Counted from the stretch's first letter, positions 1,499-26,602 are shown. The stretch is DNA of 42,951 nucleotides from Minisyncoccota bacterium (GCA_025450175.1 JANWHY010000011.1:1-42951), one strand, 5' to 3'. The notes: generated by a model from the letters alone, not told the origin. Numbers and translations are program-made.

Positions 1499-1966
1499 CT
1501 ATGTCCTACGAGGCTTAGGGGGCTTGGGGCCGTTATGAGGAACCGGAGTTTTATCCTGAATCGTAGTTAAGTTGATACCCTTTGATATAAAGCCGCGGAT
1601 AGCCGACTCACGACCGGAGCCTACCCCCTTAACTACGACCTTGATCTCTTTAATACCTAATGTCTGAGCCTTTTCTGCTAACTTCTCCCCTACCTTAGCG
1701 GCAGCGAAGGGGGTGCCCTTCTTTGCGCCCTTGAAGCCTAGAGAACCCGATGAGGACCAGGCGAGCGTATTAAATTTTGGATCCGTGAGGGTCAGCTTGG
1801 TGTTGTTGTAAGTCGACTCTACATACAAGACTCCTGAGTCGACACGCTTCTTGGAAGACTTAGACGAAGAAGCTTCCGGAGACTTCTCCGCCCCGCCCGA
1901 ACGACCGTCCGGTCGGGCGGGCTTGTCGTTCTCTGCTTGTACTGTTGCGATTTTTTTCTTACCCAT
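1499..1966 (-). CDS. rpsK: 30S ribosomal protein S11, with an in-frame palindrome-derived PARPDGRSGG insert in the N-terminal tail
   Basis: STYNNT, WSSSGSLGFKGAKKGTPFAA, GSGRESAIR, DKTPVPHNG motifs. Confidence 0.97.
   Translation of the reverse strand: MGKKKIATVQAENDKPARPDGRSGGAEKSPEASSSKSSKKRVDSGVLYVESTYNNTKLTLTDPKFNTLAWSSSGSLGFKGAKKGTPFAAAKVGEKLAEKAQTLGIKEIKVVVKGVGSGRESAIRGFISKGINLTTIQDKTPVPHNGPKPPKPRRT
1892..1921 (-). repeat. 30-bp palindromic in-frame element, copy 1 (in rpsK)
   Basis: Coding strand reads CCCGCCCGACCGGACGGTCGTTCGGGCGGG with 9-bp terminal inverted arms. Identical to 12520-12549. Confidence 0.95.
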
Positions 1967-1975
1967 AATAAATAT

Positions 1976-2010
1976 AATTTAAAATTTTGAATTTAAAATT
2001 TAAAATTGTT
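1976..2010. repeat. AT-rich 7-mer tandem repeat (AATTTAA-like, 5 units) in the rpsM-rpsK spacer
   Basis: aatttaa aattttg aatttaa aatttaa aattgtt. Two further aatttaa units occupy 1485-1498 in the rpsK-rpsD spacer. Confidence 0.6.
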
Positions 2011-2387
2011 TATGTTTTCTCGGCAATTTTCCTACCGGTACCCATAGTCTTCCTTACACCACGCTTAGTACGAGCATTGGTCTTGGTACGCTGACCTCGC
2101 ACAGGAAGGTTCCTCATATGGCGCATCCCTCGGTAACTCTTCAAGTCTTTCAATCTCCTAATATTAGAAGTCACTTCGCGGCGGAGGTCACCCTCGAGAG
2201 TAAGCGCCTCGATGATAGCGCGGATCTTGTTCTCATCCTCGATCGAGGCGTCCTTGGCCTTTTTGCCATATTCGATCCCAGCTTCCTTAAGTATCGACTG
2301 AGCTCGAGATCTCCCAACACCAAAGAGGGTCGTTAGACCGATTTCAAGACGCTTATCATCTGGGATGGTAATACCAAGAAGTCTCAT
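2010..2387 (-). CDS. rpsM: 30S ribosomal protein S13
   Basis: EGDLRREV, YRGMRHMRNLPVRGQRTKTNART motifs. Confidence 0.97.
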   Translation of the reverse strand: MRLLGITIPDDKRLEIGLTTLFGVGRSRAQSILKEAGIEYGKKAKDASIEDENKIRAIIEALTLEGDLRREVTSNIRRLKDLKSYRGMRHMRNLPVRGQRTKTNARTKRGVRKTMGTGRKIAEKT

Positions 2388-2503
2388 TAACCTTGTCGTT
2401 GCTTATGTCTAGGATTAGCTTTGCAAATTACGTAAACATAGCCCTTTCTGCGGACTATCTGGCACTTACTACACATTTTCCTTACGGCCGCCTTGACTTT
2501 CAT
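2387..2503 (-). CDS. rpmJ: 50S ribosomal protein L36 (Zn-binding type)
   Basis: Below the ORF-track cutoff. Manual translation: [43 protein letters not shown] overlap with rpsM. Confidence 0.97.
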
Positions 2504-2555
2504 AGCAAGATTGCATTGTAACCTAAGCTACTTCGAGTGTCTAGCCTTGGCTAGG

Positions 2556-2804
2556 TTAGAGCCTTTTTATGATCCGGGCTTTGCCACCATAGGGCTCAAG
2601 CTCCATAACTACCTTATCTCCCACCAATACACGAATCCTATGTAGACGCATCTTACCAGAGAGATAAGCCAAGATCTCTTTAGGCTCATCTTGACTTACT
2701 CCTTCAGTCCCGCTCTCATCCAAGCGCACCCTAAACATAATATTTGGCAAGGATTCTGTGATAATACCTACCCTCTCTAGGGTCTCTCTCTTTTCAATAT
2801 TCAT
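2556..2804 (-). CDS. infA: Translation initiation factor IF-1
   Basis: [12 protein letters not shown]...[21 protein letters not shown]; lies next to rpmJ. Confidence 0.95.
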
Positions 2805-2806
2805 TA

Positions 2807-4123
2807 TTACTTATTATCTGTTGACTCTCTTTCTACCATAATCTTCGAAGCATCACTAGGGAAGGAGCTCTTCCAGAAGGGTCGGATGATTGGCCTCGCC
2901 GACACTATACTTGGGTAGTTGTTGAGGATCAGAGGCAGATCCTTCTTGTTGTGACCAACAAGATCTGCCTTGAGAGCCACCTCGTCTGAAGACCAGACGG
3001 CAAGACCCGTACCAGAGACGGAGAAGTTAATCTCAGAAACGCTCGCAAGATCAACCTGGGGGTTAGTGAAGGCAAAAGTGAGGTTAGCGAGATCTAGATC
3101 TACAGACTCATCCTTATTGATAGTGACCTTCTTCTTCGTAAGACTATTGGAGAGTTCCTTAGTTTTAAACATTACGCCGTAGAAGTTGCCCTTCTTATTG
3201 ATAGTGACCTTGTCGGCCCCAGCAGCCTGACTTTGCGGTAGGTCCTCATACACGACACTCGAGAGTGCGGGGATCAAGACGAATCCATCGGGTACTTGTG
3301 AGAGAGCCTCAGAGGTGAGATCGGTCTTGAGAGTAGTCTCGAGCTCGCCAGAGACCCGTGTCTTATCTTCCTCACTCACACCCTTCTCCTTACCTACGAA
3401 GCCTCCTGCCATCGCGGTCTTAGATCGTGCATATATAGTGTTGTAGCGTTCGCTCCCCTTGAGACCCGGGAGAGTAAAGTCTGAGAGTCCCATGTTGTAT
3501 GTCTCTCCCGCTTCGTCGGCATATATGAGAGTCTCAAGAGTACCTGGCTTCACCACTCCGCCAACAGTCATCTTGCCTGGCACCACTATGTCCTTGGCCA
3601 CTCGATAAACTTTGCCATTCGCTGCTTCGAAGCGGGTAGTAGCAATAAGCCTCTGAGGTTCGGCTGAAGCGTTGTTGTAGACCACTATGGTACCCGAGGC
3701 CTTGCGATTTACTTCTGTCTCACCTGAAGCGGCCACCTCTTTACCAAGATCTCGAGATAGTTTGACGACGCTGAAAAGCAGACTGCCCTCCCCCTCTCTC
3801 TTGGCGGTGAAGTTATCTCGAGAGAAGGCCACACTCGTAGACTTGGGTGTGTAGACCAGAGATGAGCTATTGAAGAATGCGAGAAGGGCGAAGACCAGAA
3901 CGAAAATACTTAAGAAGGTAACAATCCATACCTTAGCTCGTGATCTCCTTCGTCTCACAGGAGGCATACCAGGAGATACGCTTGTCTGTGTGGTGGAGCG
4001 CTCGACCCTGTCAATTGTAGGTGGGGGTACAGAAGTGGCGCGGCGACGGTTGGCAGGGATAGGGATATCTCGGATGCTTCGGCGCTTCTCTGGTACGATC
4101 ATGTCTTCTACGCTTTTTGCCAT
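2807..4123 (-). CDS. Single-pass membrane protein with a large extracytoplasmic domain (baseplate-J-like region; CPR-type hypothetical)
   Basis: Basic N-terminus, one TM ([20 protein letters not shown]), then [31 protein letters not shown] and AMAGGF motifs. Family is recalled, not searched. Confidence 0.6.
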
Positions 4124-4157
4124 TTGTATTTTAGTGAACTTATTAAACTATTATAAC

Positions 4158-5369
4158 TTAATTAGAGAATTTTTGGCTACTACTCTGGCGCGAAAGTTCT
4201 TGATGCTTCTTCATCTCTTCTTTAAACTTTTCTTCGTCGAGATTGGGCACAACTTCTTTTATTATTTCTAATGGTAGTCCATAACTCGTGAAGAGGGTGA
4301 ACGGGTCTGCACCTTTCTCTACTTGCTTCAATCCTGCACTTAATGCTTTCTCAAACTTGGCTAGTTCGTCATGAATTATTTCTTTAGTGTTAGGTGCGAA
4401 TGTATAGAGACCCTGGTAACTTGGATGATTGATTACAGCATCTACTATTGGATCAATATTCTTATCACTGACATAAGCGCGGCGCAAAAGTCTTCGTAGA
4501 ATATATCCCCTATCAGTATTGGAGGGGGTCACTCCATCTGCGATCATAAAGACGGAGGTGCGGATGTGGTCTGCCGCGATCCGCGAGCTTGTGACCCCCA
4601 TAAGAGGTGCAAACAAATCTGTTTCGAAAATATTATTCTTACCTTGAAGTGCCATAGTTAAACGCTCAAGTCCTGCCCCCGTATCCACATTTTTTTGTGA
4701 AAGTTTGCCTACAACCTTTCCACCTTTCTTGAGATACTCCATGAACACATCATTCCAAACCTCTACGACTTCCTGCCTCTCATCGGCCACCATGTATTCT
4801 TCTTTAGTCATGTCTCCCAACTTGCCCGTGACATCATAAAACATCTCAGTATCTGGACCACAAGGGCCATCTTCTCCCATACTCCACCAATTCGACTTTG
4901 CCCCCATAAAGTAAATACGATTTTCTGGCATGTACTTCTTCCAGATTTCAAATGCTTCTTCGTCACGAGGAGCATTCTCATCCCCTTCAAAAACAGTTAT
5001 ATAGAGACGCTTTGGATCTAAGCCAAAACCTTCTTCCTTACTCGTGAGAAGTTCAAAGCTCCATTTAATAGCCTCTTCTTTGAAATAATCACCCAATGAC
5101 CAATTGCCAAGCATTTCGAAAAAAGTGTCATGTGTATTGTCTCCAACTTCTTCAATGTCTTGGGTTCGCACACATTTCTGAATATTTACCAAACGCTTCC
5201 CCTGAGGATGCTCATTGCCCATGAGATATGGAACGAGAGGTTGCATACCTGCTGTAGTAAAGAGGACTGACTTATCTCCCTCTGGTATTAGAGAGGCCGA
5301 AGGAATTTTAGTATGTCCTCGTTCTTCAAAAAATTTAAGAAATTTCTCTCGGATTTCTCTGGATTGCAT
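4158..5369 (-). CDS. alaS: Alanine--tRNA ligase, aminoacylation domain only (403 aa)
   Basis: LFTTAGMQP, QKCVR, TFFEMLGNWS, EVWNDVFM, VDTGAGLER, DHIRT, GYILRRLLRR. Ends at HQELSR...KFSN with no HxxxH/CxxxH editing domain. Confidence 0.93.
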   Translation of the reverse strand: MQSREIREKFLKFFEERGHTKIPSASLIPEGDKSVLFTTAGMQPLVPYLMGNEHPQGKRLVNIQKCVRTQDIEEVGDNTHDTFFEMLGNWSLGDYFKEEAIKWSFELLTSKEEGFGLDPKRLYITVFEGDENAPRDEEAFEIWKKYMPENRIYFMGAKSNWWSMGEDGPCGPDTEMFYDVTGKLGDMTKEEYMVADERQEVVEVWNDVFMEYLKKGGKVVGKLSQKNVDTGAGLERLTMALQGKNNIFETDLFAPLMGVTSSRIAADHIRTSVFMIADGVTPSNTDRGYILRRLLRRAYVSDKNIDPIVDAVINHPSYQGLYTFAPNTKEIIHDELAKFEKALSAGLKQVEKGADPFTLFTSYGLPLEIIKEVVPNLDEEKFKEEMKKHQELSRQSSSQKFSN

Positions 5370-5396
5370 GCAAATGAATATAGCACAAAAAGACGA

Positions 5397-5420
5397 AGGG
5401 CGACGCGTAAGCGTCGCCCT
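5397..5420 (-). terminator. Intrinsic terminator-like hairpin
   Basis: agggcgacgc-gtaa-gcgtcgccct, 10-bp stem with a T-rich tail on the minus strand, downstream of the 5430-5666 ORF. Confidence 0.7.
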
Positions 5421-5429
5421 GGCACAAAG

Positions 5430-5666
5430 TCACGCGGCAACAGAGAGTAGTACCTGGAATTTCTCGCTCGGATACCATCTCACCTGATTATTCTGGTCCA
5501 CCATGGGGCCCAAACCCTCTTCTTTCGAAAGAGCGATGAACCCCGGGCAAGAACCAGAGACATGGAAAGGCCCATCCAGCGGCGCAAGTCCAATTGGTGC
5601 CACCTGCCGGACAACCTCACCTATCACACGCTGACCGCCTGTTCCCATCGAAAAATGATCGGACAT
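5430..5666 (-). CDS. Small hypothetical protein (78 aa)
   Basis: ATG at 5666 preceded by a GGAGGAG SD and TGgTATAAT (5688-5693); followed by a hairpin. Confidence 0.6.
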   Translation of the reverse strand: MSDHFSMGTGGQRVIGEVVRQVAPIGLAPLDGPFHVSGSCPGFIALSKEEGLGPMVDQNNQVRWYPSEKFQVLLSVAA

Positions 5667-5688
5667 GCTCTTACTCCTCCACCTAGTA

Positions 5689-6273
5689 TTATACCACACT
5701 TTTCAAAACTTTAAAATCTTCTTGGAGAGTACTTAAGAGATGTTGATTATATATAGCGGCGGCGGGATGGTAGAGCGGCACGTATTTAAATTGATTTGCC
5801 TCGAATACTTTCCCATGCAAAGTGCTGATAGGGCCCACCTCCCACTCAAGTCCGTATCGATTCATGATGTAAACCATTGAGAAGCGGCCGAGAGTGGCCA
5901 CCACTTTCGGTTTAATTATCTCGATCTGCCTATCTAGAAAGGGTGCATAGATAGATATCTCCTCCGGTAATGGATCCCTGTTTCCTTGTGGTCGGTCTTT
6001 TACAATGTTTGTGACATAAACATCTTTTCTCTCGATGCCGACAGATGCCAGTAGATCATCCAATACTTTCCCTGCGCGTCCGCAGAAGGGTCGACCCGTC
6101 TTGGCCTCATTCTCTCCCGGAGCTTCGCCTATAAACATGATGTCCGCAGAGTGACTCCCCTCTCCAATCACTGGGAAATATTTGTTCTCAATTCTGTATC
6201 GATAAAGGGGTGATGACGAGAGAGCTACTACCTCGTCTTTAATCTTCTTCAGCTCACTTGTCGCATCCGCCAT
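5689..6273 (-). CDS. udg: Uracil-DNA glycosylase, family 4
   Basis: IMFIGEAPGENE, GRPFCGRAG, VYVTNIVKDRP, LYHPAA motifs. Confidence 0.9.
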   Translation of the reverse strand: MADATSELKKIKDEVVALSSSPLYRYRIENKYFPVIGEGSHSADIMFIGEAPGENEAKTGRPFCGRAGKVLDDLLASVGIERKDVYVTNIVKDRPQGNRDPLPEEISIYAPFLDRQIEIIKPKVVATLGRFSMVYIMNRYGLEWEVGPISTLHGKVFEANQFKYVPLYHPAAAIYNQHLLSTLQEDFKVLKSVV

Positions 6274-6277
6274 TCTC

Positions 6278-7108
6278 TTAGAGTTCGTTTATCTCGTCTA
6301 TAACAGGGATAATGTTGAAGTTCTCTCCTAAGAACTTGGTAAGAGGTGTTGGATCGTTCTTCACATCGGAGCAGAGCACCACCCTGGAGGCAAGTAAGAT
6401 CTTTTTGTCTTGGTTACTTAGAGTTGTAAGACAAGTTATAGGGTGTAGACCTTCCGTCTCGATCATGCTGCGCAAGTTCCCCTCATCAGGATAATTCCAA
6501 CCAATCATTTTCAAATCTTTGCAGACACCGTAGTGGATCGCCGTACTCGAGAACTTAGTATTAGTGATAAGCCAACTGTCAGTAATCTTACGATCCTTAC
6601 CTCCGTAGTTAAAAACATTTTCTCGCAGATCATCAAAACGCGCTTTCATATATAAGACCACCTTGAGGTCCGACTTAGTCCCGAGTTCGTTGTGGAACTT
6701 GGCCTCAATCATTACGAGCTCCTTATCGGTGTAGGCGACGACATCTACTTCGTGAGGTACACAAGCGCCCAAGACAGTCTGTCTAGTCTCACACTTGTAA
6801 CCCTTAGCCTCCAAGATCTTGGCTACGAAGTCTTCGAAGGGAAATCCTGAAGGTCCGAGATCCATGACGGCGCGGCGGAGAGAGTAGCTACGAGCTACCG
6901 GCTTAGAGATAGTCTCGAGTATAGAGAAGGCGTGTCGATAGATCTCGCTCGTGCTCATGTCGTTGTGGAGTTCTGGCAAGAGATGCTCCAACACCTTCGC
7001 GCTCGCCGCCTCACTTGCACCGGAGTGTAGGAGAGAAGCACGAAGCTTCGCGGGATCGAAGAACTCCTTCTGGCCATTTGCCTTGATGAGAGTAACCTGG
7101 TTAGTCAT
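6278..7108 (-). CDS. ATP-cone domain plus Mrr-like PD-(D/E)xK restriction-endonuclease-fold protein
   Basis: N-terminal IKANGQKEFFDPAKLRASL (ATP cone), then GFPFEDFV...HEVDVV...IEAKFH...LITNTKFS. Confidence 0.75.
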   Translation of the reverse strand: MTNQVTLIKANGQKEFFDPAKLRASLLHSGASEAASAKVLEHLLPELHNDMSTSEIYRHAFSILETISKPVARSYSLRRAVMDLGPSGFPFEDFVAKILEAKGYKCETRQTVLGACVPHEVDVVAYTDKELVMIEAKFHNELGTKSDLKVVLYMKARFDDLRENVFNYGGKDRKITDSWLITNTKFSSTAIHYGVCKDLKMIGWNYPDEGNLRSMIETEGLHPITCLTTLSNQDKKILLASRVVLCSDVKNDPTPLTKFLGENFNIIPVIDEINEL

Positions 7109-7124
7109 AGGTTAAGTATATCAA

Positions 7125-8219
7125 CTAAGAAACCACTTTATCCATCAGAGCACCGCCGAGACATTCTTCATCGCGATAAAAGACGATTGACTGTCCAAGT
7201 GAGAGACCTCGCACTGGGGTACGGAAGGTTACGGCCAAGCGCTTGCCCTCAAGAGAAAGCGTGGCAGGGATCTTATCTCCTCGATAACGTACACGAGCAC
7301 TCAAGGTAGGTATGGTGGGCTCACTGATCCAGTTGGGCTTCTTCACCACAATCTTGGTCGGTGAGAGAGCGATAATCTCTGGCTCTTCTTTCGAGACAGT
7401 GAGAGTATTGGCCTTCACATCTTTCGACACGACATAGTATGGCTTATCCTCCGGCGACTTCTCCGTAATCTCGAAGCCATGCCGCTCACCAATAGTATAA
7501 AAGACGGTGCCATTATGAGTGCCAATCACCCTGCCCTCTGTATCTAGTACCTTACCTGGCTTCGTCTCAATATAATGAGATAAGAATTTCTCAATACTGA
7601 CCTCCCCGATGAAGCAGATACCCTGACTATCCTTCTTTTCTGCAACAGGAATCTTGTACTTAGCGGCGAGCTTACGCGTTTCTTCCTTCTCTAAATTGCC
7701 AACAGGAAAAAGTACGTGGGGCAAATCCTCCGGAGTAAGCGTCCAGAGAAAGTAACTTTGATCCTTCTCTTTATCTTTCCCTTCTAATAATGCAGCCTGC
7801 TTCACCTGTGCATAATGTCCCGTAGCAATGAAGTCTGCTCCCATCTCTCTAGCCTTCTTAGAGAAGGCTCCGAACTTAATCTCCCTATTGCACAATATAT
7901 CTGGGTTGGGTGTACGACCCGCCTTATATTCTAGAATCATCTCATCTACTACGCCCTTCTTATATTCTTCCTCGAAGTCGAAGGATAGGAATGGGATATC
8001 GAGAGCCGCCGCCACCCTCATGGCATCCCGCCTCTCATCGCGCCAGGCACAAGGTAAGAAGTCAGGCTGCCACACCTTGATAAAGACTCCGGTGACATCA
8101 TACCCTCTTTCCTTAAGCAGAGCTGCTGAGACAGCACTATCTACCCCACCCGAAAGCCCGACAAAAACTTTTTGCTTTTTCTTCCTCTTACTTGATGTAT
8201 TTCCTTTTGTTGGCCACAT
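7125..8219 (-). CDS. mnmA: tRNA 2-thiouridylase MnmA
   Basis: SGGVDS PP-loop, TPNPDILCNREIKF, ATGHYA, KDQSYFL, DSQGICF. Start is uncertain; the ATG at 8219 overlaps the mltG end. Confidence 0.95.
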   Translation of the reverse strand: MWPTKGNTSSKRKKKQKVFVGLSGGVDSAVSAALLKERGYDVTGVFIKVWQPDFLPCAWRDERRDAMRVAAALDIPFLSFDFEEEYKKGVVDEMILEYKAGRTPNPDILCNREIKFGAFSKKAREMGADFIATGHYAQVKQAALLEGKDKEKDQSYFLWTLTPEDLPHVLFPVGNLEKEETRKLAAKYKIPVAEKKDSQGICFIGEVSIEKFLSHYIETKPGKVLDTEGRVIGTHNGTVFYTIGERHGFEITEKSPEDKPYYVVSKDVKANTLTVSKEEPEIIALSPTKIVVKKPNWISEPTIPTLSARVRYRGDKIPATLSLEGKRLAVTFRTPVRGLSLGQSIVFYRDEECLGGALMDKVVS

Positions 8220-9078: not shown

Positions 9079-9081
9079 AGT

Positions 9082-11439: not shown

Positions 11440-13620
11440 TCAAGTGACGATACTTATGACCTTATTGGGTACTACTATCACCTTCTTAGGCTCTTTGTCT
11501 AACCACTTTTTCACCTCTGGTAGTCCTAGAGCAAGGCTTTTTATCTCCTCTTCGCTCTGACCCTTCTCTATCTTGAGCGTGGCTCTTAGCTTGCCGTTGA
11601 CCTGGACAGTCATAACAATCTCATCATCCACGAGTTTACCTTCATCATATGTTGGCCACGACTCAAGATGGATAGAATCTTTGTGTCCAAGCTCCGCCCA
11701 AATCTCTTCTGTAATGTGTGGAGCAAAAGGTGCAAGGAGCTTTAGAAGTGTCTTGTATTCTTCTTGTGAAATTTTCTCTTGCTTTTCAAGATTGTTCGCT
11801 AGAATCATCATACTTGAGATGGCAGTATTGAATCCAAGTTTCTCTATATCATCAGAAACCTTTCTTACAGTCTGGTGTAAAATTGCAGGGATTTCGACAT
11901 TGGAATCCGCAATTTTCTCCTTCAATCTCCAAACTCTCTCAAGGAACCGGCGGGGGCCTGCGAGAGCCTCATCGCTCCACGCAATAGCTTGTTCGAAGGG
12001 GCCCATGAACATTTCATATAGGCGTAGAGTGTCAGCGCCGAACTGATCTACAATCTTGTCTGGATTTATCACATTGCCCTTCGACTTACTCATTTTCTCT
12101 CCGCCTTCCGCCAGAATAATACCGTGAGAAGTACGCTTCTTGTAAGGCTCGCTAGTTGGCACTAACTTGAGATCATATAGAAATTTATTCCAGAATCTCG
12201 AATAGAGTAAGTGGAGTACGGTGTGTTCCATACCGCCGTTGTACCAATCGACTCCCATCCAATATTTTAATTTTTCTTTAGAAGCAAATTCTTTATCATT
12301 TTTGTCATCACAATATCTATAGAAGTACCACGAGGAGCCGGCCCAGTTGGGCATAACATCGGTCTCACGTTTAGCATCACCGCCACAGCTGGGGCACTTC
12401 ACACGGACCCACTCACTAATATTGGCTAGTGGAGACTCGCCATCGGGCCCGGGCTCATACTTCTCAACCACTGGGAGTTCTACTGGTAGATCCTTCTCCG
12501 GTACCGGTACCACTCCACACCCGCCCGAACGACCGTCCGGTCGGGCGGGCTTCTCACAATGTATAACCGGAATAGGCTCCCCCCAATAGCGTTGTCGCGA
12601 AAACACCCAATCCCGAAGTTTGTACTTCACCACCTTCTTTCCAAATTCTTCAAAGTCTGCTTTTTTATAATCTATAACAATTGGCAGATTGTACTTCTCA
12701 GCAAAAACTCTATCTCGTTCATCATCAGCTGGCACTCCCATAATTGCACCCGTGCCGTAATCTGAATAAACATATTCAGCTTCCCAAACAGGAATCTTTT
12801 CTTTCGTTGCCGGATTCGTCACGAACTTCCCAGTGAACTTGTCTTCCTTCCCTGAAACCACCAGAAAAGTTGCCCCACGAATAGTATCTGGTCGAGTGGT
12901 AAAAATTTCTATGTCATCAAACTTTATCAACACACCCTCGCTTCTCCCAATCCAGTTTCTCTGCTCTATCTTCACTCTCTCGGGATAATCAACTTCGTCT
13001 AAATCTTTATCCAACCTGTCTGCATACTTGGTTATAGCAAGCATCCACTGCTCTTTCTCCTTCTCTACCACTTCTGTACCACAACGTTCGCACTTACCAT
13101 CGACCACCTCCTCATTGGCCAAACCAATTTTATCCTTCGGACACCAGTTAATTGGCATCTTGGCCTTATAGGCTAGACCGTTTTCAAGAAATTTTAAAAA
13201 GATCCACTGAGTCCACTTATAATACTTGGGATCTGTAGTATTGGTCTCCCTCGCCCAGTCAAAAGAGATGCCAAGAGACTGGATCTGCTTGCGGAAGGTA
13301 TCTGTATTTTCTTTTGTAACTACACGCGGATCCTTGCCTGTCTTCAAGGCATAGTTTTCTGTCGGGAGACCAAAGGCGTCCCAACCTATTGGGTACAAAA
13401 CATTCTTGCCTTCCATTCGACGCTTGCGCGCAATGATATCGAGACCAATATAGGGACGAGGGTGACCCACATGGAGACCGTCACCAGATGGGTAAGGAAA
13501 TTCTATGAGAGCGTAATACTTCTCCTTCTTAGAATCATCTTCTGCATGATAAATTCCCGACTTCTCCCATTCCTCCTGCCACTTAGATTCTATTTCTTTA
13601 GGGTTATACTCATCAGCCAT
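11440..13620 (-). CDS. leuS: Leucine--tRNA ligase (compact CP1; palindrome insert in a CxxC knuckle)
   Basis: [43 protein letters not shown], KMSKS. Confidence 0.97.
   Translation of the reverse strand: [726 protein letters not shown]
12520..12549 (-). repeat. 30-bp palindromic in-frame element, copy 2 (in leuS)
   Basis: Identical to 1892-1921. Splits HCEK|CGVVP. Confidence 0.95.
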
Positions 13621-19196: not shown

Positions 19197-19211
19197 CTCG
19201 TCAGAGTTCAC

Positions 19212-19236: not shown

Positions 19237-19309
19237 TCCATCAAAGCAATTAAATCTTTTGATTTCTTTGGTGGGACCATTTCGGTCAATGTTCTTTGAG
19301 GAGGTGGTT

Positions 19310-19609: not shown

Positions 19610-19614
19610 GCCCG

Positions 19615-19665
19615 TGAAAGACCCGCGATAACATCGCTAGTCTCTCGCGGGCTCTTTCATTTTAT
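19615..19665 (+). terminator. Intrinsic terminator
   Basis: tgaaag-a-cccgcga...tcgcggg-ct-ctttca followed by tttt. Confidence 0.6.
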
Positions 19666-19696
19666 TATTCACAAAAATTTTTGATACAATTTATAT

Positions 19697-20116: not shown

Positions 20117-20753
20117 CATCGAGAATCTCGACCACAGAATCCCTTAGCTTGTTTACCCTCTCCTTCTTTTCCTTCTTACTCTTACCGCTATTCTCACTCC
20201 CCTTCTCTTCCCTACTATCTTCCTTATCTTTCTTCCCTTCTACAATCCGCGCCCTCAACTCTTTCTTAAGTGAGGTAGAAGAAGCCACTTTTTCTGTAGC
20301 GATATTAAATGACTGTGAGCTCTTCTTGATACTTTCTTCGAGCTTCTTAAACTTCTTGTCATCAAGCTTATCCTTCTCCACCAGCTTCTCGGCCTCAGCT
20401 ATCCGGCGATCAATCTTGGCTTCTTCCCACACAATCTTTTCCTCCGAGCTTCTATGACTTGCTCCCACAAAGGGCTCCACAATCTTGGTCTTTATGGGAT
20501 ATAGGATATCTCCAGGCAAAGAATTACCAGAGACTTGGAGTACTCCCACCGACATGACGAGTACTAGACACGCAACAAGTCCAAAAGTTCGGATAGGAAA
20601 TACATACGGAGACTTTATCGGCGCACTAAAAATCTTCTGGAGCATCTTCTCCTTCTCAGATTGGGAAAGTCTTATACTATTCCACCCCGAACGAATCTTT
20701 TCAAGATCGTACGGGGCAGGACTCTTTATTCCTTTGTTAAATTCTTCATTCAT
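20082..20753 (-). CDS. Membrane protein with a DUF5667-like domain; putative anti-sigma factor
   Basis: One TM then SLPGDILYPIK; ATGA overlap with the ECF sigma gene. Confidence 0.7.
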   Translation of the reverse strand: MNEEFNKGIKSPAPYDLEKIRSGWNSIRLSQSEKEKMLQKIFSAPIKSPYVFPIRTFGLVACLVLVMSVGVLQVSGNSLPGDILYPIKTKIVEPFVGASHRSSEEKIVWEEAKIDRRIAEAEKLVEKDKLDDKKFKKLEESIKKSSQSFNIATEKVASSTSLKKELRARIVEGKKDKEDSREEKGSENSGKSKKEKKERVNKLRDSVVEILDATSSLKSLRNF

Positions 20754-21256
20754 TCTTTGATATGTAACTTTTTCTTAAGATCTTTTAGTCCTCGAGTTAT
20801 GCGTATAGAGACCACATTAGGATTGACCCCAAGTAACTCGGCAATCTCCTGCGGTTTAAGATCTTCTACAAACCGCAGATATACAACCTCCCGAGATTCT
20901 TCCGGTAAACTCTTTAGAACTTCGAGTACTCGACTGACCTCTGCCTCCATCTCTATAGCCTCGTAAGCCCTCTCGTCTTCTATATCTGGAGCGCTCTCTT
21001 CTTCGAAGCTCGTATCGAGAGAGAGGGTCTTCTTCTTCCTATACCAATCGATGATGAGATTGCGAGCTGTTCTATATAGGAAGCCTTTTCTATTACTCAC
21101 CTCCTCGCCACTAGCCAACTTCTGCCACAGACGAGCGAAGGATTCTTGTACCAGATCTATAGCCCTCTCCCTGTCAGATACTCTAAAGAGCGAGAAGCGG
21201 AAGAGCTTATCCGCCTCCTCCTCATAAATTTGCTCGAATTGTTCTCTCCTACTCAT
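20750..21256 (-). CDS. ECF-type RNA polymerase sigma factor
   Basis: Region 2 (DLVQESFARLW, FLYRTARNLIIDWYRK) and region 4 (LRFVEDL..QEIAELLG...VSIRITRG); 168 aa. Confidence 0.92.
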   Translation of the reverse strand: MSRREQFEQIYEEEADKLFRFSLFRVSDRERAIDLVQESFARLWQKLASGEEVSNRKGFLYRTARNLIIDWYRKKKTLSLDTSFEEESAPDIEDERAYEAIEMEAEVSRVLEVLKSLPEESREVVYLRFVEDLKPQEIAELLGVNPNVVSIRITRGLKDLKKKLHIKE

Positions 21257-21319
21257 GACGGTGGGGCCTCTCTATCCTTTCATAATTTGGAGTTGAAAGG
21301 AATTCGTACGTAGAACGTC
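21257..21319. promoter_or_regulatory. Two divergent ECF-type promoter motifs, TGAAAG-N16-CGTC
   Basis: Plus strand: 21294-21299 and 21316-21319. Minus strand: 21282-21277 and 21260-21257. Both spacers are 16 nt. Confidence 0.6.
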
Positions 21320-21367
21320 TACTATATTGGCGCCTCGGCGCAAGAATAATACCTATTACTTAACCAT

Positions 21368-22285
21368 ATGACTATCCACATTATTAAAAGGTTTGCCTTA
21401 CCCCTTATCCTCGCCGTCCTAATCTTAGGCGTGGGTACCTTAGCCTATGCTAAGGAGAACGGTAATCAAGATAAGAGCGATAAGAAAGTGCAGGTTGAGA
21501 AGAACAAAGCAGAAAGAAAGCAAGATAAGAAAGAGATCAAGCTCTGCTTCCGAGCTTTCGGACACCTTATAGCTCCCGGCTTTATAAAGCATCATGGAGA
21601 AGTAGACGTAGACCTTAGTAACTGCTTCATCCCCTTCGGCATCGCTAAGAAGTTCCGTGGTGTAGCCTCTTCTACTACGCAAGATCTTATAGCTCCGACT
21701 ATTACCGATGTTAAGATCGTGACCACTACCAACAAGGCAACTATCACCTGGCATACGAGCGAACGCGCAGACACTACCCTATTCTGGAACACTTCCGCCG
21801 GCGTCAATGTAAGTAGCACTTCAACTCCGAAGATCGCTAACGCTACAGAGACCAAGGATCACAAAGTAGTTATCCCTAACCTTACCGCCAGCACCACTTA
21901 CTACTTCGTATTAAGATCCAAAGACCATTCAGGCAACGCTACCACCTCAAGCGAAATGAGCTTCACTACTAAAGGAGCACCAGTAGACACTGCGGCTCCT
22001 ACCATCTCAAGCATAGTGATCCTGACTAGCTCCTCTACCGCCACAGTAGGTTGGCATACAAGCGAGAACGCTACTTCCAAGGTTTACTTCGGCACTCTAG
22101 ACGCTCTCAATGTAAACGCTACAACCACAAGCTTCGTAGAGACTAATGCTCTTACCGAGAACCACTCTCTGCAAGTCACCAGCCTGGCCTCTTCTACTCC
22201 CTACTTCTTCGCGGTCGAATCTAAAGACGCAACAGGCAACAGAACAGTCAGTCCCATCTTCACCGCTACGACCTTAGGATTGTAA
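21368..22285 (+). CDS. Secreted Thr/Ser-rich protein with two fibronectin-III (purple-acid-phosphatase-N-like) repeats
   Basis: Signal peptide, GHLIAPG motif, and two repeats of D..APTI...AT(I/V).WHTSE...H...L..ST.Y(Y/F)F...SKD..GN. Confidence 0.8.
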   Translation: MTIHIIKRFALPLILAVLILGVGTLAYAKENGNQDKSDKKVQVEKNKAERKQDKKEIKLCFRAFGHLIAPGFIKHHGEVDVDLSNCFIPFGIAKKFRGVASSTTQDLIAPTITDVKIVTTTNKATITWHTSERADTTLFWNTSAGVNVSSTSTPKIANATETKDHKVVIPNLTASTTYYFVLRSKDHSGNATTSSEMSFTTKGAPVDTAAPTISSIVILTSSSTATVGWHTSENATSKVYFGTLDALNVNATTTSFVETNALTENHSLQVTSLASSTPYFFAVESKDATGNRTVSPIFTATTLGL

Positions 22286-22303
22286 TAGCTCCAGCATTCA
22301 ATA

Positions 22304-22335
22304 AAACAAAAAGAGCCTTGCGGCTCTTTTTGTTT
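22304..22335. terminator. Bidirectional terminator
   Basis: aaacaaaaagagcc-ttgc-ggctctttttgttt between convergent genes. Confidence 0.85.
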
Positions 22336-22336
22336 G

Positions 22337-22915
22337 CTATTTAGCCTGTTTCCCCATATTAAAAACTTTCTTCTTGATCCGTTCGCGGCGGCCAGTGGTG
22401 TTGAAGTGTTTGAGGTAGCCAAACTTCTTGACACGAATAGGGCCGAAGCCGGCAAACCAGAGAGCACCATTGCGTAACTCATTGGTCGTATCGCCGAAGA
22501 TTATGCGCTGAGCAAGTGGGATAGTGTCTGAGGTGACTATCATTCGCGCGCTTCTGCCCTTGAGTAACTTAATCCAGGTAAATTCGCCCGTAAACTTATA
22601 AGCAAAGCCCGGAATCCAGGCTCGATCGATGAGACCCTTGAGAAGAGCTGGCATAGTCGACCACCATGATGGATAGAAGATTACAAAGTGGTCACACCAC
22701 CTCACATTCTCTTGGAAGGATAATAGATCGGGCTCGAGCTCTTGGATCGTGCGGTAGCCATGGTGGAGGATGGGGTCAAACTTCATTTCACCCAGATTCA
22801 TCCGGCGGACTTCATGACCTCCAGTCTCCGCGCCCCTCTCATACTCACTCGCCAATGTGAAGTTGAAACTGTCGTTATCTGGGTGACCGAGAAGTATGAA
22901 AATTTTCTTCGACAT
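22337..22915 (-). CDS. NAD(P)H-dependent oxidoreductase, flavodoxin-2 family
   Basis: LGHPDNDSFN, LEPDL, YPSWWSTMPALLKGLIDR...PGFAY. Confidence 0.88.
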   Translation of the reverse strand: MSKKIFILLGHPDNDSFNFTLASEYERGAETGGHEVRRMNLGEMKFDPILHHGYRTIQELEPDLLSFQENVRWCDHFVIFYPSWWSTMPALLKGLIDRAWIPGFAYKFTGEFTWIKLLKGRSARMIVTSDTIPLAQRIIFGDTTNELRNGALWFAGFGPIRVKKFGYLKHFNTTGRRERIKKKVFNMGKQAK

Positions 22916-22916
22916 A

Positions 22917-23147
22917 TTAGCGCCCCATTAGCTTCTGTAACTCCGCTTGGTTCTCTCTCATCACTACCATAGTGGCGGCCATCTCACTCTCACCATTCTT
23001 CATCCTGCGTTTGACCTCATCACCAATCTTTTTGAAAAATTCTGGATTCTTCTCTACTAGCGTAAGCATCATATCGCGCTCGGCCTCGGGCACGTCCTTC
23101 ATCTTCATCTTCAAGGCCTGCTTGAGTAAAAAGTTTTTGAATCCCAT
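22917..23147 (-). CDS. Small helical conserved hypothetical protein
   Basis: 76 aa with VEKNPEFFKKI; packed tightly against its neighbours. Confidence 0.7.
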   Translation of the reverse strand: MGFKNFLLKQALKMKMKDVPEAERDMMLTLVEKNPEFFKKIGDEVKRRMKNGESEMAATMVVMRENQAELQKLMGR

Positions 23148-23168
23148 GATCGCGCTATTTTAACATTT

Positions 23169-24074
23169 TTATTCTGCCCCACAAAGAGCCTTGAGAGCAT
23201 CTATATCTGCCATAGCAAGAACTCCAGCCTCACTCTCATTGAGGTAATACATTATAGAGTCTGGGTCGCTTGTATGCTCAAGACCAAGCGCGTGCCCAAG
23301 CTCATGTGCGAGTACGCGCACAAGCTTGGCGCGGTTCTTGAACTCATAAATATCTATACCGTACTCAGTCGGATTCTGGTAGAAGAGACCCCCGGTGAAG
23401 GATTCTCCACGACTTGCCCCAATAGTGTTGTAGGTCTCTACGTTGAGGTTAAGGGCTTTTGCCAAGTGGTTAAGCGACTCTACTAGAGAGTTCAGCGCAT
23501 GAACTCTTAGATTGAGCTTGGCCTCCAGAACTTCTAGTTCAGCGGTCTGTCTCTCAAGAGTGGTGCGCTCATCCTCGAGAGCTTGCCACTCTTTCTTAGA
23601 AGTACGTGAAGACTTGTTCCAAGCTTCGACCTTACCTTGGTAAGCACTATTAGCAAGATTAAAAGCTGTAACCTTGTTATCGTAATCTCTCTTGGCTTCT
23701 TCGTAAGAGGTCTTCTCCGCTAAATAGTTGGCACGAAACTTCTTATAAGTACTCTCGTCCTGTGCTAACTCACTACCCAGGTTCTCAAGAGTCTTGGTAG
23801 TCTCTTGGCGATAATCATAAATAAGATTAATAGGTAATTTCCCCGCTACCGCATCGTAAGTGAAAAGTTCTTTGCCAAGAGCCTTCTCCCATAGACCTTC
23901 CGCCTCGCGAAGAGATAGTAAGAAATCAGGTTGAGAGATCTTAAACCTCTCGTCGAACTTGTTAATGTTATAAGTGATAGGCTCCTCACAAGGCCTCTTG
24001 GCGAAGATGACTTCGTGATACTTCCAGCCTATACCTCCTAGAATTAAAATTATGAGGAAAAGAACCTTCGTCAT
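23169..24074 (-). CDS. Matrixin (M10)-like zinc metalloprotease with a coiled-coil insert
   Basis: HELGHALGLEH, Met-turn SIMY, N-terminal TM. Confidence 0.88.
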   Translation of the reverse strand: MTKVLFLIILILGGIGWKYHEVIFAKRPCEEPITYNINKFDERFKISQPDFLLSLREAEGLWEKALGKELFTYDAVAGKLPINLIYDYRQETTKTLENLGSELAQDESTYKKFRANYLAEKTSYEEAKRDYDNKVTAFNLANSAYQGKVEAWNKSSRTSKKEWQALEDERTTLERQTAELEVLEAKLNLRVHALNSLVESLNHLAKALNLNVETYNTIGASRGESFTGGLFYQNPTEYGIDIYEFKNRAKLVRVLAHELGHALGLEHTSDPDSIMYYLNESEAGVLAMADIDALKALCGAE

Positions 24075-24089
24075 TTTTTGCCCATTTGC

Positions 24090-24575
24090 TTAGTCTCCGA
24101 AGGTAATAGGGATCTCTAGCGCGTCGTCGTGTTCGGCGAGACCTGAGGGATTATCCTTACGGAAGATGATAGTGCCGCGCTTCCCAAGCTCTCCTTGGAT
24201 AGCAGGTTCAGTAAACTCGATGGTGCCTATGAAGGGTACGAACTCTTCGGTCATCCAGTCTCCTTGTGCCTCAGCGTGACCTTGGCCGATGATAAGTCCA
24301 TCCCAGTTCACTATATCTATAGGGAAGCTAGCTTCGAAGTACCAAGTCCCGCGAGCTTTGCCACGCACGACTATGGGAGAAGTGATGTTTCCAAGGGGCA
24401 CCGGGGAGTCGACTACTATCAGATTGGCCTTGGATTGGATGTGTGCGAGAACGTCGGCCGGGACTTCTGTCGTAGACGGTAGATCGTCGGTAGTGGGCAT
24501 ACGGTTCTTACCCACTACAAAAAGGAATCCAATAAGTACAGCAAGAACCACTAAGATAGAGACAATCTTCCCCAT
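24090..24575 (-). CDS. Membrane-anchored Gmad2-type Ig-like domain protein
   Basis: SPIVVRGKARGTWYFEASFP...WMTEEFVPF...KDNPSG. Confidence 0.75.
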   Translation of the reverse strand: MGKIVSILVVLAVLIGFLFVVGKNRMPTTDDLPSTTEVPADVLAHIQSKANLIVVDSPVPLGNITSPIVVRGKARGTWYFEASFPIDIVNWDGLIIGQGHAEAQGDWMTEEFVPFIGTIEFTEPAIQGELGKRGTIIFRKDNPSGLAEHDDALEIPITFGD

Positions 24576-24591
24576 TAGCTGGTCTAATTAA

Positions 24592-24750
24592 CTAGGCGTT
24601 CTTAGGAAGGATCTTGTACATGCCTGTTCCACAGACGGTACAAGTTCCCTTAGCAGCTGGGCGACCAGGCTTGATCTCAACCCTCTTAACATCCTTCATC
24701 TCCCTCTTTTGCTTACATTTAACACAGTAACCAATGACTTTTTCGTCCAT
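24592..24750 (-). CDS. Small zinc-ribbon protein (DUF5679-like)
   Basis: YCVKCKQKREM...KGTCTVCGTGMYKI. Confidence 0.8.
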   Translation of the reverse strand: MDEKVIGYCVKCKQKREMKDVKRVEIKPGRPAAKGTCTVCGTGMYKILPKNA

Positions 24751-24794
24751 AATTTTATTATTAGTTATCCTATCCAACATACCATATTAATAAG

Positions 24795-24826
24795 AAAAGG
24801 CCACCCCTAGGCGGGGGTGGCCTTTT
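24795..24826. terminator. Intrinsic terminator (bidirectional form)
   Basis: aaaaggccacccc-taggcg-ggggtggcctttt. Confidence 0.85.
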
Positions 24827-24833
24827 AAGGATC

Positions 24834-25223
24834 CTAAGCTCCTTTCGGAACAAGATCCCTGAGCATCTCACGATAATTGATCGGATGAGGATGGTAACTA
24901 GCACCACGAACAAGGCAGAATCGACCCAGCTCGACCTTCTCACCTCTAAAAGTGGTAAAGTCCGAATCCCCCATTAGGGCAAATGGGAGAGATGCCAGGG
25001 GAGGATTCGCCCTGATGATTGCGAGAAGCTCAGGTCCACTGACCCCCGAAAGCTCCACCTCTGCGAAGATATGGTCGTACCTCATATCTCCCTCTAGAAG
25101 TATTAAGGCCCCTTCGGCACCAGGAACAGGAGTTACTCCATAACCCTCCATCATAATAATCTTCGCAACCTCGTCCCGCCTAGCGCCATCACTGTCGACG
25201 AGCATCACTCTCTTCATCTTCAT
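24834..25223 (-). CDS. Degenerate receiver (REC) domain protein
   Basis: VMLVDSD...GY.V...AL..L...YDHIFAEVELSGVSGPELL; the phosphoacceptor position is Glu. Confidence 0.65.
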   Translation of the reverse strand: MKMKRVMLVDSDGARRDEVAKIIMMEGYGVTPVPGAEGALILLEGDMRYDHIFAEVELSGVSGPELLAIIRANPPLASLPFALMGDSDFTTFRGEKVELGRFCLVRGASYHPHPINYREMLRDLVPKGA

Positions 25224-25243
25224 CGATCACCCCTTCTTCCTAT

Positions 25244-25271
25244 ATTATATCACGTAATAGATTTATGTCAA
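25244..25271 (-). promoter_or_regulatory. Consensus sigma-70 promoter TTGACA-N16-TATAAT
   Basis: Reverse complement of attata (25244-25249) and tgtcaa (25266-25271). Confidence 0.75.
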
Positions 25272-25276
25272 ATGTG

Positions 25277-25349
25277 TGGACCCTAGCGGATTCGAACCGC
25301 TGACCTCCTCATTGCAAATGAGGCGCTCTACCAACTAAGCTAAGGGCCC
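25277..25349 (-). tRNA. tRNA-Ala(TGC), CCA not encoded
   Basis: GGGCCCTTAGCTTAGTTGGTAGAGCGCCTCATTTGCAATGAGGAGGTCAGCGGTTCGAATCCGCTAGGGTCCA; G3:U70 pair. Confidence 0.97.
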
Positions 25350-25412
25350 GTAGCCTCAAAAGAATACAACAAAATTATAAACCGTGCTATCTTATTTAAA
25401 CAAAAGTTTTTA

Positions 25413-25486
25413 GGGCCCATGGTATAGCAGTAACACGCGTCCATGGCATGGACGAGTCCGGGGTGCGACTCCCCGTGGGTCCACCA
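25413..25486 (+). tRNA. tRNA-Ala(GGC), CCA encoded, atypical D and T loops
   Basis: GGGCCCA...CGTCC-ATGGCAT-GGACG...GGGG-TGCGACT-CCCC...TGGGTCCACCA; G3:U70 pair. Confidence 0.92.
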
Positions 25487-25509
25487 AATAGGAGTGCTAT
25501 AATAATGTC

Positions 25510-25884
25510 ATGAAAAAAGAAGGATATGTGGATGGATTTGTACTATCTATTCCAAAAAAGAATAAGGCTAAATACCAGAAGCTTGCTCGCGAAGCCATGA
25601 AGGTTTGGATGAGATTCGGAGCTCTCGATTATAAAGAATGTATTATGGATGACCCTAAGCCCCCACTTATAACGTTTACCTTCCATAAAATGACACGGGC
25701 AAAGTCTAATGAAAATGTGTGGTTCTCCTTTATAACTTACAAATCGAAGTCGCACCGAGATATGGTTAATAAGAAGGTAATGACCTACTTCCAGAAGAAA
25801 TATGATAAAAAAGATGAACCAGGAATGCCTTTCGACATGAAGCGCATTGCCTATGCCGGATTTAAAGTAGAGGTAGGAAAATAG
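25510..25884 (+). CDS. DUF1428 (YbaA-like) protein
   Basis: YVDGFVL..P, GALDYKEC, VWFSFI.YKS..HRD, MPFDMKR..Y.GF. Confidence 0.88.
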   Translation: MKKEGYVDGFVLSIPKKNKAKYQKLAREAMKVWMRFGALDYKECIMDDPKPPLITFTFHKMTRAKSNENVWFSFITYKSKSHRDMVNKKVMTYFQKKYDKKDEPGMPFDMKRIAYAGFKVEVGK

Positions 25885-25888
25885 AGTC

Positions 25889-26602
25889 GTGAGAAAGGTA
25901 GCAATATTTGATATCGACGGAACCATCTTCCGCTCTAGCTTACTTATAGAGTTGGTAAATATTCTGATCGATCGGAAGATTTTCCCAGACAACGCTCGAC
26001 TCGAGTATGGCCGAGAGCATCTTGCCTGGCTAGACAGGAAGGGCTCTTACCACGACTACATCATGGCCGTGGTAAATGTATTTGAGAAATATATTAAGGG
26101 CGTACGCAAAGCTGAGTTAGAGAGTGCTGCCGCACTCATCGTCACCCACCAAGAGAACAGAGTCTACCGCTATACTCGAGATCTCACTCATAAGTTAAAG
26201 AACGATGGTTACTATCTCCTAGCCATCTCCCACTCCCCCAAGCTCGTGGTAGATGGATTCGCCGAGTCTCTACTCTTCGACAAAGTGTATGGGCTTAAGT
26301 ATGAGATTGATGAGAGAAGTATCTTCACCGGAGTCATCTTGGACAAAGAGCTTATCTTCCACAAAGCCAACATTCTGGAACGCGCCGTAACCAAAGAACA
26401 TCTAACTCTAGAAAATTCGGTAGGAGTGGGCGATACTGAGAGCGACATCTCCTTCTTATCCATGGTCGCTAACCCAATCGCCTTTAACCCCAATAATTTA
26501 CTCTACACTCACGCGAAGAGTAAAGGTTGGAAGGTGGTCGTCGAACGCAAAGATGTCATCTACCAACCCGCCCGACCAGACGGTCGTTCGGGCGGGCTCT
26601 AA
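25889..26602 (+). CDS. HAD-IB family hydrolase (phosphoserine-phosphatase-like)
   Basis: FDIDGT, ISHSP, K, GDTESD, NPN motifs. The C-terminus carries PARPDGRSGG. Confidence 0.88.
   Translation: MRKVAIFDIDGTIFRSSLLIELVNILIDRKIFPDNARLEYGREHLAWLDRKGSYHDYIMAVVNVFEKYIKGVRKAELESAAALIVTHQENRVYRYTRDLTHKLKNDGYYLLAISHSPKLVVDGFAESLLFDKVYGLKYEIDERSIFTGVILDKELIFHKANILERAVTKEHLTLENSVGVGDTESDISFLSMVANPIAFNPNNLLYTHAKSKGWKVVVERKDVIYQPARPDGRSGGL
26567..26596 (+). repeat. 30-bp palindromic in-frame element, copy 3 (in the HAD gene)
   Basis: CCCGCCCGACCAGACGGTCGTTCGGGCGGG; one synonymous change (CCG to CCA) versus copies 1 and 2. Confidence 0.95.

Follow-up and report, generated by a model that had tools for sequence, protein, structure and literature searches.

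A contig of a tiny Minisyncoccota bacterium from soil or groundwater (GCA_025450175.1, JANWHY010000011.1:1-42951; the window, by which we mean the whole stretch of 42,951 nucleotides analysed) carries three copies of a 30-bp palindromic element, each lying in frame inside a different essential or housekeeping gene: those for ribosomal protein S11, leucyl-tRNA synthetase (LeuRS) and a HAD-like hydrolase. Comparison with related genomes shows that the 30-mer is a precise insertion without target duplication. It is one subfamily of what we call S1 elements, miniature GC-rich hairpins of 24-48 bp (mostly 30, 32, 36 or 39 bp), and covariation shows that the S1 sequence is kept by nucleic-acid pairing, not by the peptide. 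S1 apparently constitutes a large and undescribed family of miniature mobile hairpins; a search of the available literature returned no paper describing elements of this kind in Patescibacteria. That the family exists, how it is built and that it is biased are all well supported. Taken as a whole, our reading, which we consider probable, is that S1 is a mobile hairpin family shaped by target preference and purifying selection, translated where it sits in genes, and moved by an enzyme acting in trans.

A scan of the window for the 30-mer at up to three mismatches gives exactly three matches, where 100 dinucleotide shuffles give an expectation of 0.00. All three lie on the sense strand and on a codon boundary, and all encode PARPDGRSGG; two are identical and the third has a G to A change at element position 12, which is synonymous (CCG to CCA, both Pro). 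Read in any of its six frames, the 30-mer is free of stops (PARPDGRSGG, PPDRTVVRA, RPTGRSFGR, PARTTVRSGG, PPERPSGRA and RPNDRPVGR). Folded as DNA hairpins, both strands of the 30-mer reach -11.7 to -14.2 kcal/mol, with z-scores of -2.6 to -4.0. The window holds no intergenic copy. A first-pass annotation, made from the sequence of the window alone, had described these three copies, their strand, frame and peptide, the single synonymous difference and the lack of stops and of intergenic copies, and on each of these points it stands; the other-frame peptides it listed, PARTTVRSGG and PPERPSGRAG, match the translations. Its expectation of many more copies genome-wide fails for the 30-mer: the source assembly (G000; 442,116 bases in 12 contigs, 96% complete, 47% GC) holds these three and no further copy at up to six mismatches. 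They fall within 24.7 kb, for which the chance with three random points is about 0.009, a post hoc figure.

That the element has been inserted is evident from empty sites in relatives, a comparison that the annotation had called for. For LeuRS we compared 30 loci from the 37 genomes of the genus. The site is empty, with an uninterrupted HC-x-x-CG, in 28 of them and filled only in G000 and one other genome (G014); where filled, the insert separates the two cysteines of the CxxC motif (HC-x-K/CG, the slash marking here and below the point of insertion). Filled and empty LeuRS DNA differ by exactly 30 bases with no duplicated bases, the boundary of the element being ambiguous by one nucleotide where the preceding base is G. 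In an alignment with the Thermus enzyme (1h3n) the ten residues fall opposite a gap inside ...HCE-ACGVVPVPEE.... The S11 insert is found in none of the 29 other genes from the genus, and its position is in a tail that varies between all species. Three of four HAD orthologues end in VIYE-L/I-stop, against VIYQ-insert-L-stop here, while the fourth (G010) has a different C-terminal extension. Neither at the LeuRS nor at the HAD site does the filled sequence show a target-site duplication relative to the empty one, the difference being exactly 30 bp; the annotation, too, had seen none. These comparisons support a recent insertion in at least two of the hosts, by what appears to be a non-autonomous and coding-compatible element.

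Table 1. The three copies of the 30-bp element in the window and the genes that contain them
Feature	Position	Strand	Details
30-bp hairpin element, copy 1	1892..1921	-	in frame in rpsK (S11); PARPDGRSGG is residues 16-25, in the variable N-terminal tail
Ribosomal protein S11 (host gene), 155 aa	1499..1966	-	Pfam PF00411, E 2.5e-32
30-bp hairpin element, copy 2	12520..12549	-	in frame in leuS, between HCEK and CGVVPVPE
Leucyl-tRNA synthetase (host gene), 726 aa	11440..13620	-	Pfam PF00133, PF13603, PF08264; PDB 1h3n, E 6e-181
30-bp hairpin element, copy 3	26567..26596	+	in frame in the HAD hydrolase gene, followed only by the last codon before the stop
HAD-like hydrolase (host gene), 237 aa	25889..26602	+	Pfam PF12710, E 1.8e-15

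Two of the host proteins show further peculiarities. The N-terminal tail of S11 (some 40 residues before ...DSGVLYVESTYNNTK) differs in sequence and length in nearly each of 30 genomes of the genus. The LeuRS of the window (11440-13620) is short, at 726 residues against 878 in the Thermus structure; the alignment skips from chain residue 359 to 409, and the Pfam match to the editing domain is partial only. In five relatives from the genus (G020, G025, G027, G030 and G032) the open LeuRS frames run to 909-928 residues, the additional sequence being located between residues 314 and 323 of the query.

What the first-pass annotation missed is that the 30-mer belongs to a phylum-wide superfamily with fixed 8-bp termini and a preference for AAR/GA targets. 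We scanned genomes with a pattern consisting of CCCGCCCG, 8-30 free bases and CGGGCGGG, and took the reversed pattern as control. The inverted termini CCCGCCCG...CGGGCGGG (8-9 bp) are present in all collected copies by construction of the search. They were found in 29/86 genomes of the family (8/17 genera), in 106/401 genomes of the order (79/223 genera) and in 33/301 genomes of the phylum, the control remaining near zero in all three scans; the family tallies take in one unpublished genome (G089) and the phylum tally another (G632), and no individual claim depends on either. Copies per genome range from 1 to 26, the maximum occurring in a genome of the order. G000 itself contains a 36-mer (contig C6) and a 32-mer (C7) with the same 8-bp ends as the 30-mer, and two more relatives (C9 and C12) in which the right end has decayed. 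Several types recur: a 36-mer consisting of the ends plus ACTG AACG NNNN CAGT CGTT, the 30-mer, which is the 36-mer minus its loop, 32-42-mers with a TACCGAAC...GGTACGTT interior, and several 36- and 39-mers with other interiors. Identical 30-, 32- and 36-mers are found in other families and classes. Carriage by phages was considered and set aside, just two viral contigs giving a match. From these searches we collected 99 distinct copies with their flanks.

Copies can be locally dense: in one genome (G007) nine of 22 lie on a single 82.7-kb contig, C25 (L077-L080; binomial p 0.0016), two occupy one 736-residue open reading frame (ORF), and contig C17 has two others at a distance of 168 bp. A function as DNA uptake signal seems unlikely from the copy number (1-26 per genome) and because uptake bias would be unable to make block insertions. 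We also judged to be a different thing a 39-mer with S1 termini and a non-palindromic interior, found in long inverted repeats beside a resolvase and recurring without a single change in many genomes across the order and the phylum. At one locus (L188, G285 contig C3:18800-24000) this 39-mer lies inside perfect inverted repeats of 224 bp that are separated by 1958 bp; at another (L187, G111 contig C1:1-4500) two inverted copies about 2 kb apart surround genes for an HNH endonuclease and a DHH/DHHA2 protein and adjoin a serine recombinase, and the segment may be invertible or mobile.

Evidence on what is conserved in S1 comes from 36 aligned 36-mers (29 distinct), in which two overlapping inner helices show covariation. 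Pair 11-22 is UA in 19, CG in 8, UG in one and other in one; pair 13-20 is AU in 19, GC in 7 and other in 3; pair 15-26 is CG in 18, UA in 5, UG in 5 and other in one. Among the metagenome matches listed for the 30-mer (95 contexts, see below), positions 15/20 are C/G in 67, T/A in 18, T/G in 8 and C/A in 2 (Fisher p 2e-11). Several of the substitutions involved change frame-0 residues (Pro/Leu, Gly/Ser, Arg/His). Covariation that proceeds by nonsynonymous substitutions at paired positions places the constraint on the structure of the nucleic acid and not on the peptide. The invariance of the outer stem is uninformative here because the search required it. Either strand can adopt a fold with an 8-bp outer stem, a 4-nt bulge and an inner stem of 4-6 bp, and the folding energies of the two strands are -12 to -14.6 kcal/mol.

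Length points to what happens to copies inside genes. A copy was called genic where it lies in an open frame of at least 200 residues that clearly dominates the other frames; 55 of the 99 copies are genic and 44 are not. Lengths are multiples of three in 52/55 genic copies against 30/44 non-genic ones (14/44 are not), and the 32, 34, 35 and 37 bp types are essentially restricted to non-genic DNA. Of the three genic exceptions, two are short hits and one is a fragment of a longer element. Two of the three are situated 17-20 codons into the open frame, and the other is a stretch of 26 bases from a 30-mer in which a terminus recurs in the interior. As genic lengths are multiples of three, genic copies appear to be translated and not bypassed, which would add 10-13 residues of the form PAR...(S/A)GG, with much Pro, Gly, Arg and Ser. 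Such an addition would in all three hosts fall at a tolerant position, namely in the tail of S11, at the C-terminus of the HAD hydrolase and in a loop bulged from the CxxC knuckle of LeuRS.

The bias in strand and frame that the annotation had seen in three copies is upheld in larger samples. For 52 in-frame genic copies in the genus and family set, phases 0, 1 and 2 number 38, 10 and 4. A metagenome scan for the 30-mer gave at least 120 loci; the matches listed comprise 95 distinct contexts plus five at contig ends, and among these listed matches 56 contexts are clearly genic, with sense phases 0/1/2 at 37/5/0 and antisense phases at 3/9/2 (chi-square p 1e-20, an overstated value). An independent data set adds another context, a 151-base unitig from a soil run (X2) that matches the 30-mer only and has unrelated flanks; contigs of two soil runs (shares 0.19 and 0.11) do not span the LeuRS junctions. 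Read in the orientation of the element, the flanks have the consensus A-A-R / G-A. Among the metagenome matches listed, position -1 is a purine in 85/95 contexts, and the 38 of these matches that lie outside sense phase 0 still have a purine at -1 in 31 (p 1e-4) and A at +2 in 19. In 249 long ORFs of G000 the motif AAR/GA falls in sense phase 0 in 46.9% of cases and in antisense phase 0 in 17.2%, so that an oriented preference acting on purine-rich coding strands would produce most of the bias with no RNA-level or transcription-coupled step. Selection probably accounts for what remains, namely the excess of sense phase 0 (66% against 47%) and the shortage of antisense phase 0, the relative weight of the two factors being inferred.

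We therefore favour the following scheme, beginning from the reading that S1 is mobile DNA of Patescibacteria (the Parcubacteria/Minisyncoccia group). A copy would be added precisely and in one orientation beside a purine-rich site, A-A-R / G-A. Coding strands being purine-rich and full of Lys, Glu and Asp codons, nearly half of all insertions would arrive on the sense strand at a codon boundary, and purifying selection would then eliminate those that put the gene out of frame or damage its product. The interior would form, on either strand, a second short helix with a 4-nt bulge. The enzyme would act in trans and would not be encoded in G000, the most likely candidate being a nuclease or transposase specific for hairpins or single strands; both the recognition of a single-stranded hairpin and the trans-acting enzyme are features that we infer.

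A number of observations weigh against this scheme. No filled/empty polymorphism within one population was seen and no enzyme was identified, so that current activity is not shown; of the annotation's proposal of a recently active mini-element, the recent, non-autonomous and coding-compatible parts are thus borne out by the empty sites, and the active part is not. The p-values for the bias are overstated because copies are not independent, some being orthologous, and one phase-1 'genic' copy (L116) is really situated within a tRNA-like fragment. From the motif, 17% of cases would be expected in antisense phase 0 and 7% in antisense phase 1, where 5% and 16% are observed among the matches listed, and the target model is accordingly incomplete. 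The target consensus is also partly circular, in that most copies are in sense phase 0 and Lys/Asp or Lys/Glu junctions may reflect the tolerance of surface loops and not targeting. Translation is deduced from lengths. Finally, identical 30-mers across families and classes require either horizontal spread or very strong constraint, neither of which is demonstrated.

The same sites have been used repeatedly. G000 and G014 have the identical 30-mer at the same LeuRS codon, with flanks that differ at about nine of 30 downstream bases; in the LeuRS tree G014 groups with five species in which the site is empty (support 95/98), and a clade of the two filled genes is rejected (approximately unbiased test, p 3.8e-7). 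Among the metagenome matches listed, the same motif is filled in at least three further LeuRS-like genes (L286, L297 and L312), and a long ORF (L377) is filled at C-D-K/C-S, the same motif as the LeuRS site. Elsewhere, orthologous sites are occupied by different subfamilies: at ...EPDP-x-K / ELAI... there is a 36-mer in G007 and a 39-mer in G010, at ...YPE-x-Q / D-x-FT... a 30-mer in G007 and a 36-mer in G024, and a third such site distinguishes G014 from G007. Such repeated use suggests either hot spots or an exchange of interiors among copies with the same ends.

Which enzyme might move S1? One candidate is a system of the type found in repetitive extragenic palindromes and their associated tyrosine transposases (REP/RAYT) or in the insertion sequences IS200/IS605, where an HUH Y1 transposase encoded elsewhere in these genomes would move S1 through single-stranded DNA and insert it 3' of a short target. 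The lack of target duplication, the oriented 5' flank (AAR/) and the bulged hairpin would all fit, and Y1_Tnp-like ORFs (about 225 residues, multi-copy in the family) occur in 61/86 genomes. Moreover, at least five of 30 Y1 loci (L146, L148, L152, L153 and L154) have the ORF between two inverted copies of the same lineage-specific GC-rich hairpin, about 0.7 kb apart; these look like IS200- or REP/RAYT-like units, and hairpin-based Y1 elements thus seem to be present in the lineage. However, the hairpins at these loci are unrelated to S1, and the one S1-like match within about 1.5 kb of the 30 Y1 loci (L128) is loose and atypical, a 50-base stretch with one mismatch in the right terminus; at none of these loci is the Y1 gene flanked by S1, the kind of arrangement for which the annotation had proposed to look. 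Among the listed S1-rich genomes, a sample, no gene is flanked by a pair of S1 copies some 0.7 kb apart. Y1_Tnp occurs in 21/29 S1-positive genomes, leaving eight without it, and G000 has none: six families (Y1_Tnp, TnpB zinc ribbon, Resolvase, rve, DDE_Tnp_1 and IS110) gave no match there and a seventh gave one tyrosine recombinase only, which extends to the assembly the annotation's report of no transposase in the window. Copy numbers of S1 and Y1 are weakly correlated (Spearman 0.21, p 0.055). Finally, the window copies follow the strand of their genes (two -, one +) though GC skew does not switch, a poor fit to an orientation set by the direction of replication. We regard a Y1 transposase as a possible but rather unlikely mover of S1.

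A second candidate is suggested by an association with tRNA genes. Sixteen of the 99 copies lie exactly at D-arm stem boundaries of a displaced copy of the 5' part of a tRNA gene, comprising at most some 30 nt from its start, which is found 20-330 bp upstream of the intact tRNA; the junctions are TA/GCTC in seven cases, GCTC/AGY in six and GGTA/GAGC in three. An ORF of about 80 residues for a GIY-YIG protein lies within 600 bp of 10/44 non-genic copies and 0/55 genic ones, and one such ORF was confirmed (PF01541, E 1.2e-12). Small GIY-YIG nucleases of this kind might nick or cut hairpin junctions; S1 would be inserted at the breaks, or gene conversion or repair would copy it in from filled alleles. 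That a single site may hold identical or different elements would agree with this, as would the correlation of S1 counts with GIY-YIG matches (Spearman 0.37, p 4e-4) and, from yeast, the behaviour of GC clusters, which according to PMC8811140 share termini, merge, shuffle and convert alleles. Yet the correlation is uncorrected for phylogeny and partly trivial, because the cassettes supply target sites; GIY-YIG genes are present in 84/86 genomes of the family, many of them free of S1; genic sites are unlike D-arm junctions; a catalytic domain of about 80 residues by itself has no known targeting or joining activity; and gene conversion cannot make copies at new sites. Spread driven by these nucleases is a tentative proposal, and one to which we give a low probability.

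The loci themselves have a recurrent layout (L124, L021, L026, L028, L076, L079 and L115): a displaced copy of the tRNA 5' part (about 20-30 nt), often interrupted by S1 at a D-arm boundary, then an ORF for a GIY-YIG protein of 79-86 residues, then the intact tRNA. The layout resembles a homing-type cassette that restores its target. In G000 (L124, contig C7:31900-35000) the 32-mer is at L124:1543-1574 and the GIY-YIG ORF at L124:1278-1517(-), its stop codon falling inside the first bases of the tRNA. The regions L079:1575 (G007 contig C25) and L077:1551 contain one displaced fragment with two elements, a 32-mer at TA/GCTC and a decayed S1-like copy at GGTTA/GAGC, and another with an S1 32-mer and a different GC-rich hairpin in the D-loop. 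The idea that S1 interrupts real tRNA genes in the manner of an intron finds no support at the loci analysed, the flanks being displaced 5' fragments: ARAGORN finds no tRNA across the junction in L021, L026, L028, L029 and L023, with or without the element. In L021, L026, L028 and L029 the complete tRNAs that Rfam recognises are the intact ones nearby, and its one hit beside an element is a partial match in L029 that scores 26.6 bits, below the cut-off of 29.

The first-pass annotation had also considered selection on the peptide. On this view PARPDGRSGG would be a functional motif added to proteins. The strong preference for frame 0 speaks for it, and each frame-0 copy begins with PAR and finishes with GG in either orientation, though the latter follows from the termini being palindromic. 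Against it, the interiors of subfamilies are wholly different (e.g. PARHGFAVGESGG and PARTTEAVQSGG) and replace one another at one site, the covarying substitutions alter residues, copies are also retained in other frames and between genes, and the host proteins are unrelated. With nonsynonymous covariation and subfamilies that encode unrelated interiors, selection on this peptide as main cause of the pattern is very unlikely.

Still less credible is the suggestion, made in the same place, that the hairpin is cut from the messenger RNA or skipped by the ribosome, in the style of the byp elements of Magnusiomyces mitochondria or of T4 gene 60, leaving proteins unaltered. It would spare an essential enzyme whose CxxC motif is split by the LeuRS copy, the hairpin is stable, and relatives among the mitochondrial GC clusters are bypassed in translation (PMC8811140). 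But a skipped insert would need neither a length bound to the frame nor stop-free frames, and genic S1 copies have the first (52/55, with the 32, 34, 35 and 37 bp types essentially non-genic) and the 30-mer, open in six frames, has the second. An assembly, adapter or chimera artefact, or else an ancient and vertically inherited insert, neither of which anything was found to favour, may be dismissed, since many genomes and metagenome contigs that were assembled independently have the element in frame, its junctions are clean against empty orthologues, the soil-run unitig holds the 30-mer in another context, 28/30 LeuRS loci are empty, and the two filled LeuRS genes are not sisters.

A bolder view, which we think unlikely but worth stating, is that S1 is perhaps the smallest mobile DNA known from bacteria, moving as hairpin oligonucleotides by a mechanism that has yet to be described, and would correspond in bacteria to the GC clusters of mitochondria. 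Extruded hairpins would be cut at their stem junctions by a structure-specific nuclease, with the hairpin ligated in afterwards, the candidate enzymes being the GIY-YIG cassette proteins of about 80 residues or an unrecognised enzyme. If true, it would explain the absence of target duplication together with insertion at D-arm stem boundaries, the reuse of sites by different interiors with the same 8-bp ends (as cassette exchange), and identical copies across classes of Patescibacteria.

Among described systems the closest analogues of S1 are Rickettsia palindromic elements (RPEs) and mitochondrial GC clusters. RPEs, according to PMC10969869, are selfish palindromic DNA of about 150 bp found in frame in many unrelated and often essential genes of a reduced genome, where they are translated as extra peptide segments in tolerant positions, their transposase being unknown. 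S1 is likewise palindromic and in frame in unrelated genes, but as judged from that description of RPEs it differs in size (24-48 bp against about 150 bp), in its hosts, which are Patescibacteria, and in having no sequence relation; S1 also has invariant 8-bp termini common to many interiors. The mitochondrial GC clusters of yeast and other fungi are described in PMC8811140 as short GC-rich palindromes with shared terminal sequences, in frame in var1, which change rapidly, merge and shuffle and are hot spots of recombination and gene conversion; GC-rich palindromes flank tRNA genes in Neurospora mitochondria, AG/TAG terminal repeats are read as target duplications, and byps are bypassed in translation. 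S1 shares with them its shortness, GC-richness, palindromic form, common termini and in-frame position in genes. It differs in having no duplicated bases and in residing on a bacterial chromosome (47% GC) and not in an organelle, and from byps and T4 gene 60 in that its genic lengths are bound to the frame (52/55).

Likenesses to REP/RAYT elements (REPINs) and to IS200/IS605 are a length of tens of bases, an imperfect hairpin, no target duplication and an oriented position beside a short flanking motif. REPs are extragenic and present in hundreds of copies, whereas S1 is largely intragenic (55/99 in ORFs of at least 200 residues) with 1-26 copies per genome, and no Y1 gene flanked by S1 was seen among 30 loci, nor any Y1 gene in G000. 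[quoted passage not shown] No parent insertion sequence with the same ends was found in the sample of genomes inspected.

On the reading of S1 as a mobile hairpin family, Patescibacteria would be a second bacterial lineage, after Rickettsia, with selfish palindromes inside essential genes, and at 24-48 bp S1 would be near the lower limit of scale for mobile elements. The family is phylum-wide in bacteria with minimal genomes, where insertions in ribosomal proteins or aminoacyl-tRNA synthetases should be costly. It also provides a worked example of how a strong bias in strand and frame can result simply from a target preference at the DNA level where the coding strand is skewed in composition. 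S1 inserts inflate protein-family alignments and can mislead the annotation of Patescibacteria. The fixed termini, covarying interiors, reuse of sites and link to tRNA fragments offer handles for finding the enzyme. For mitochondrial GC clusters, the mechanism of which has been a question for decades, the parallel could be put to the test in bacteria.

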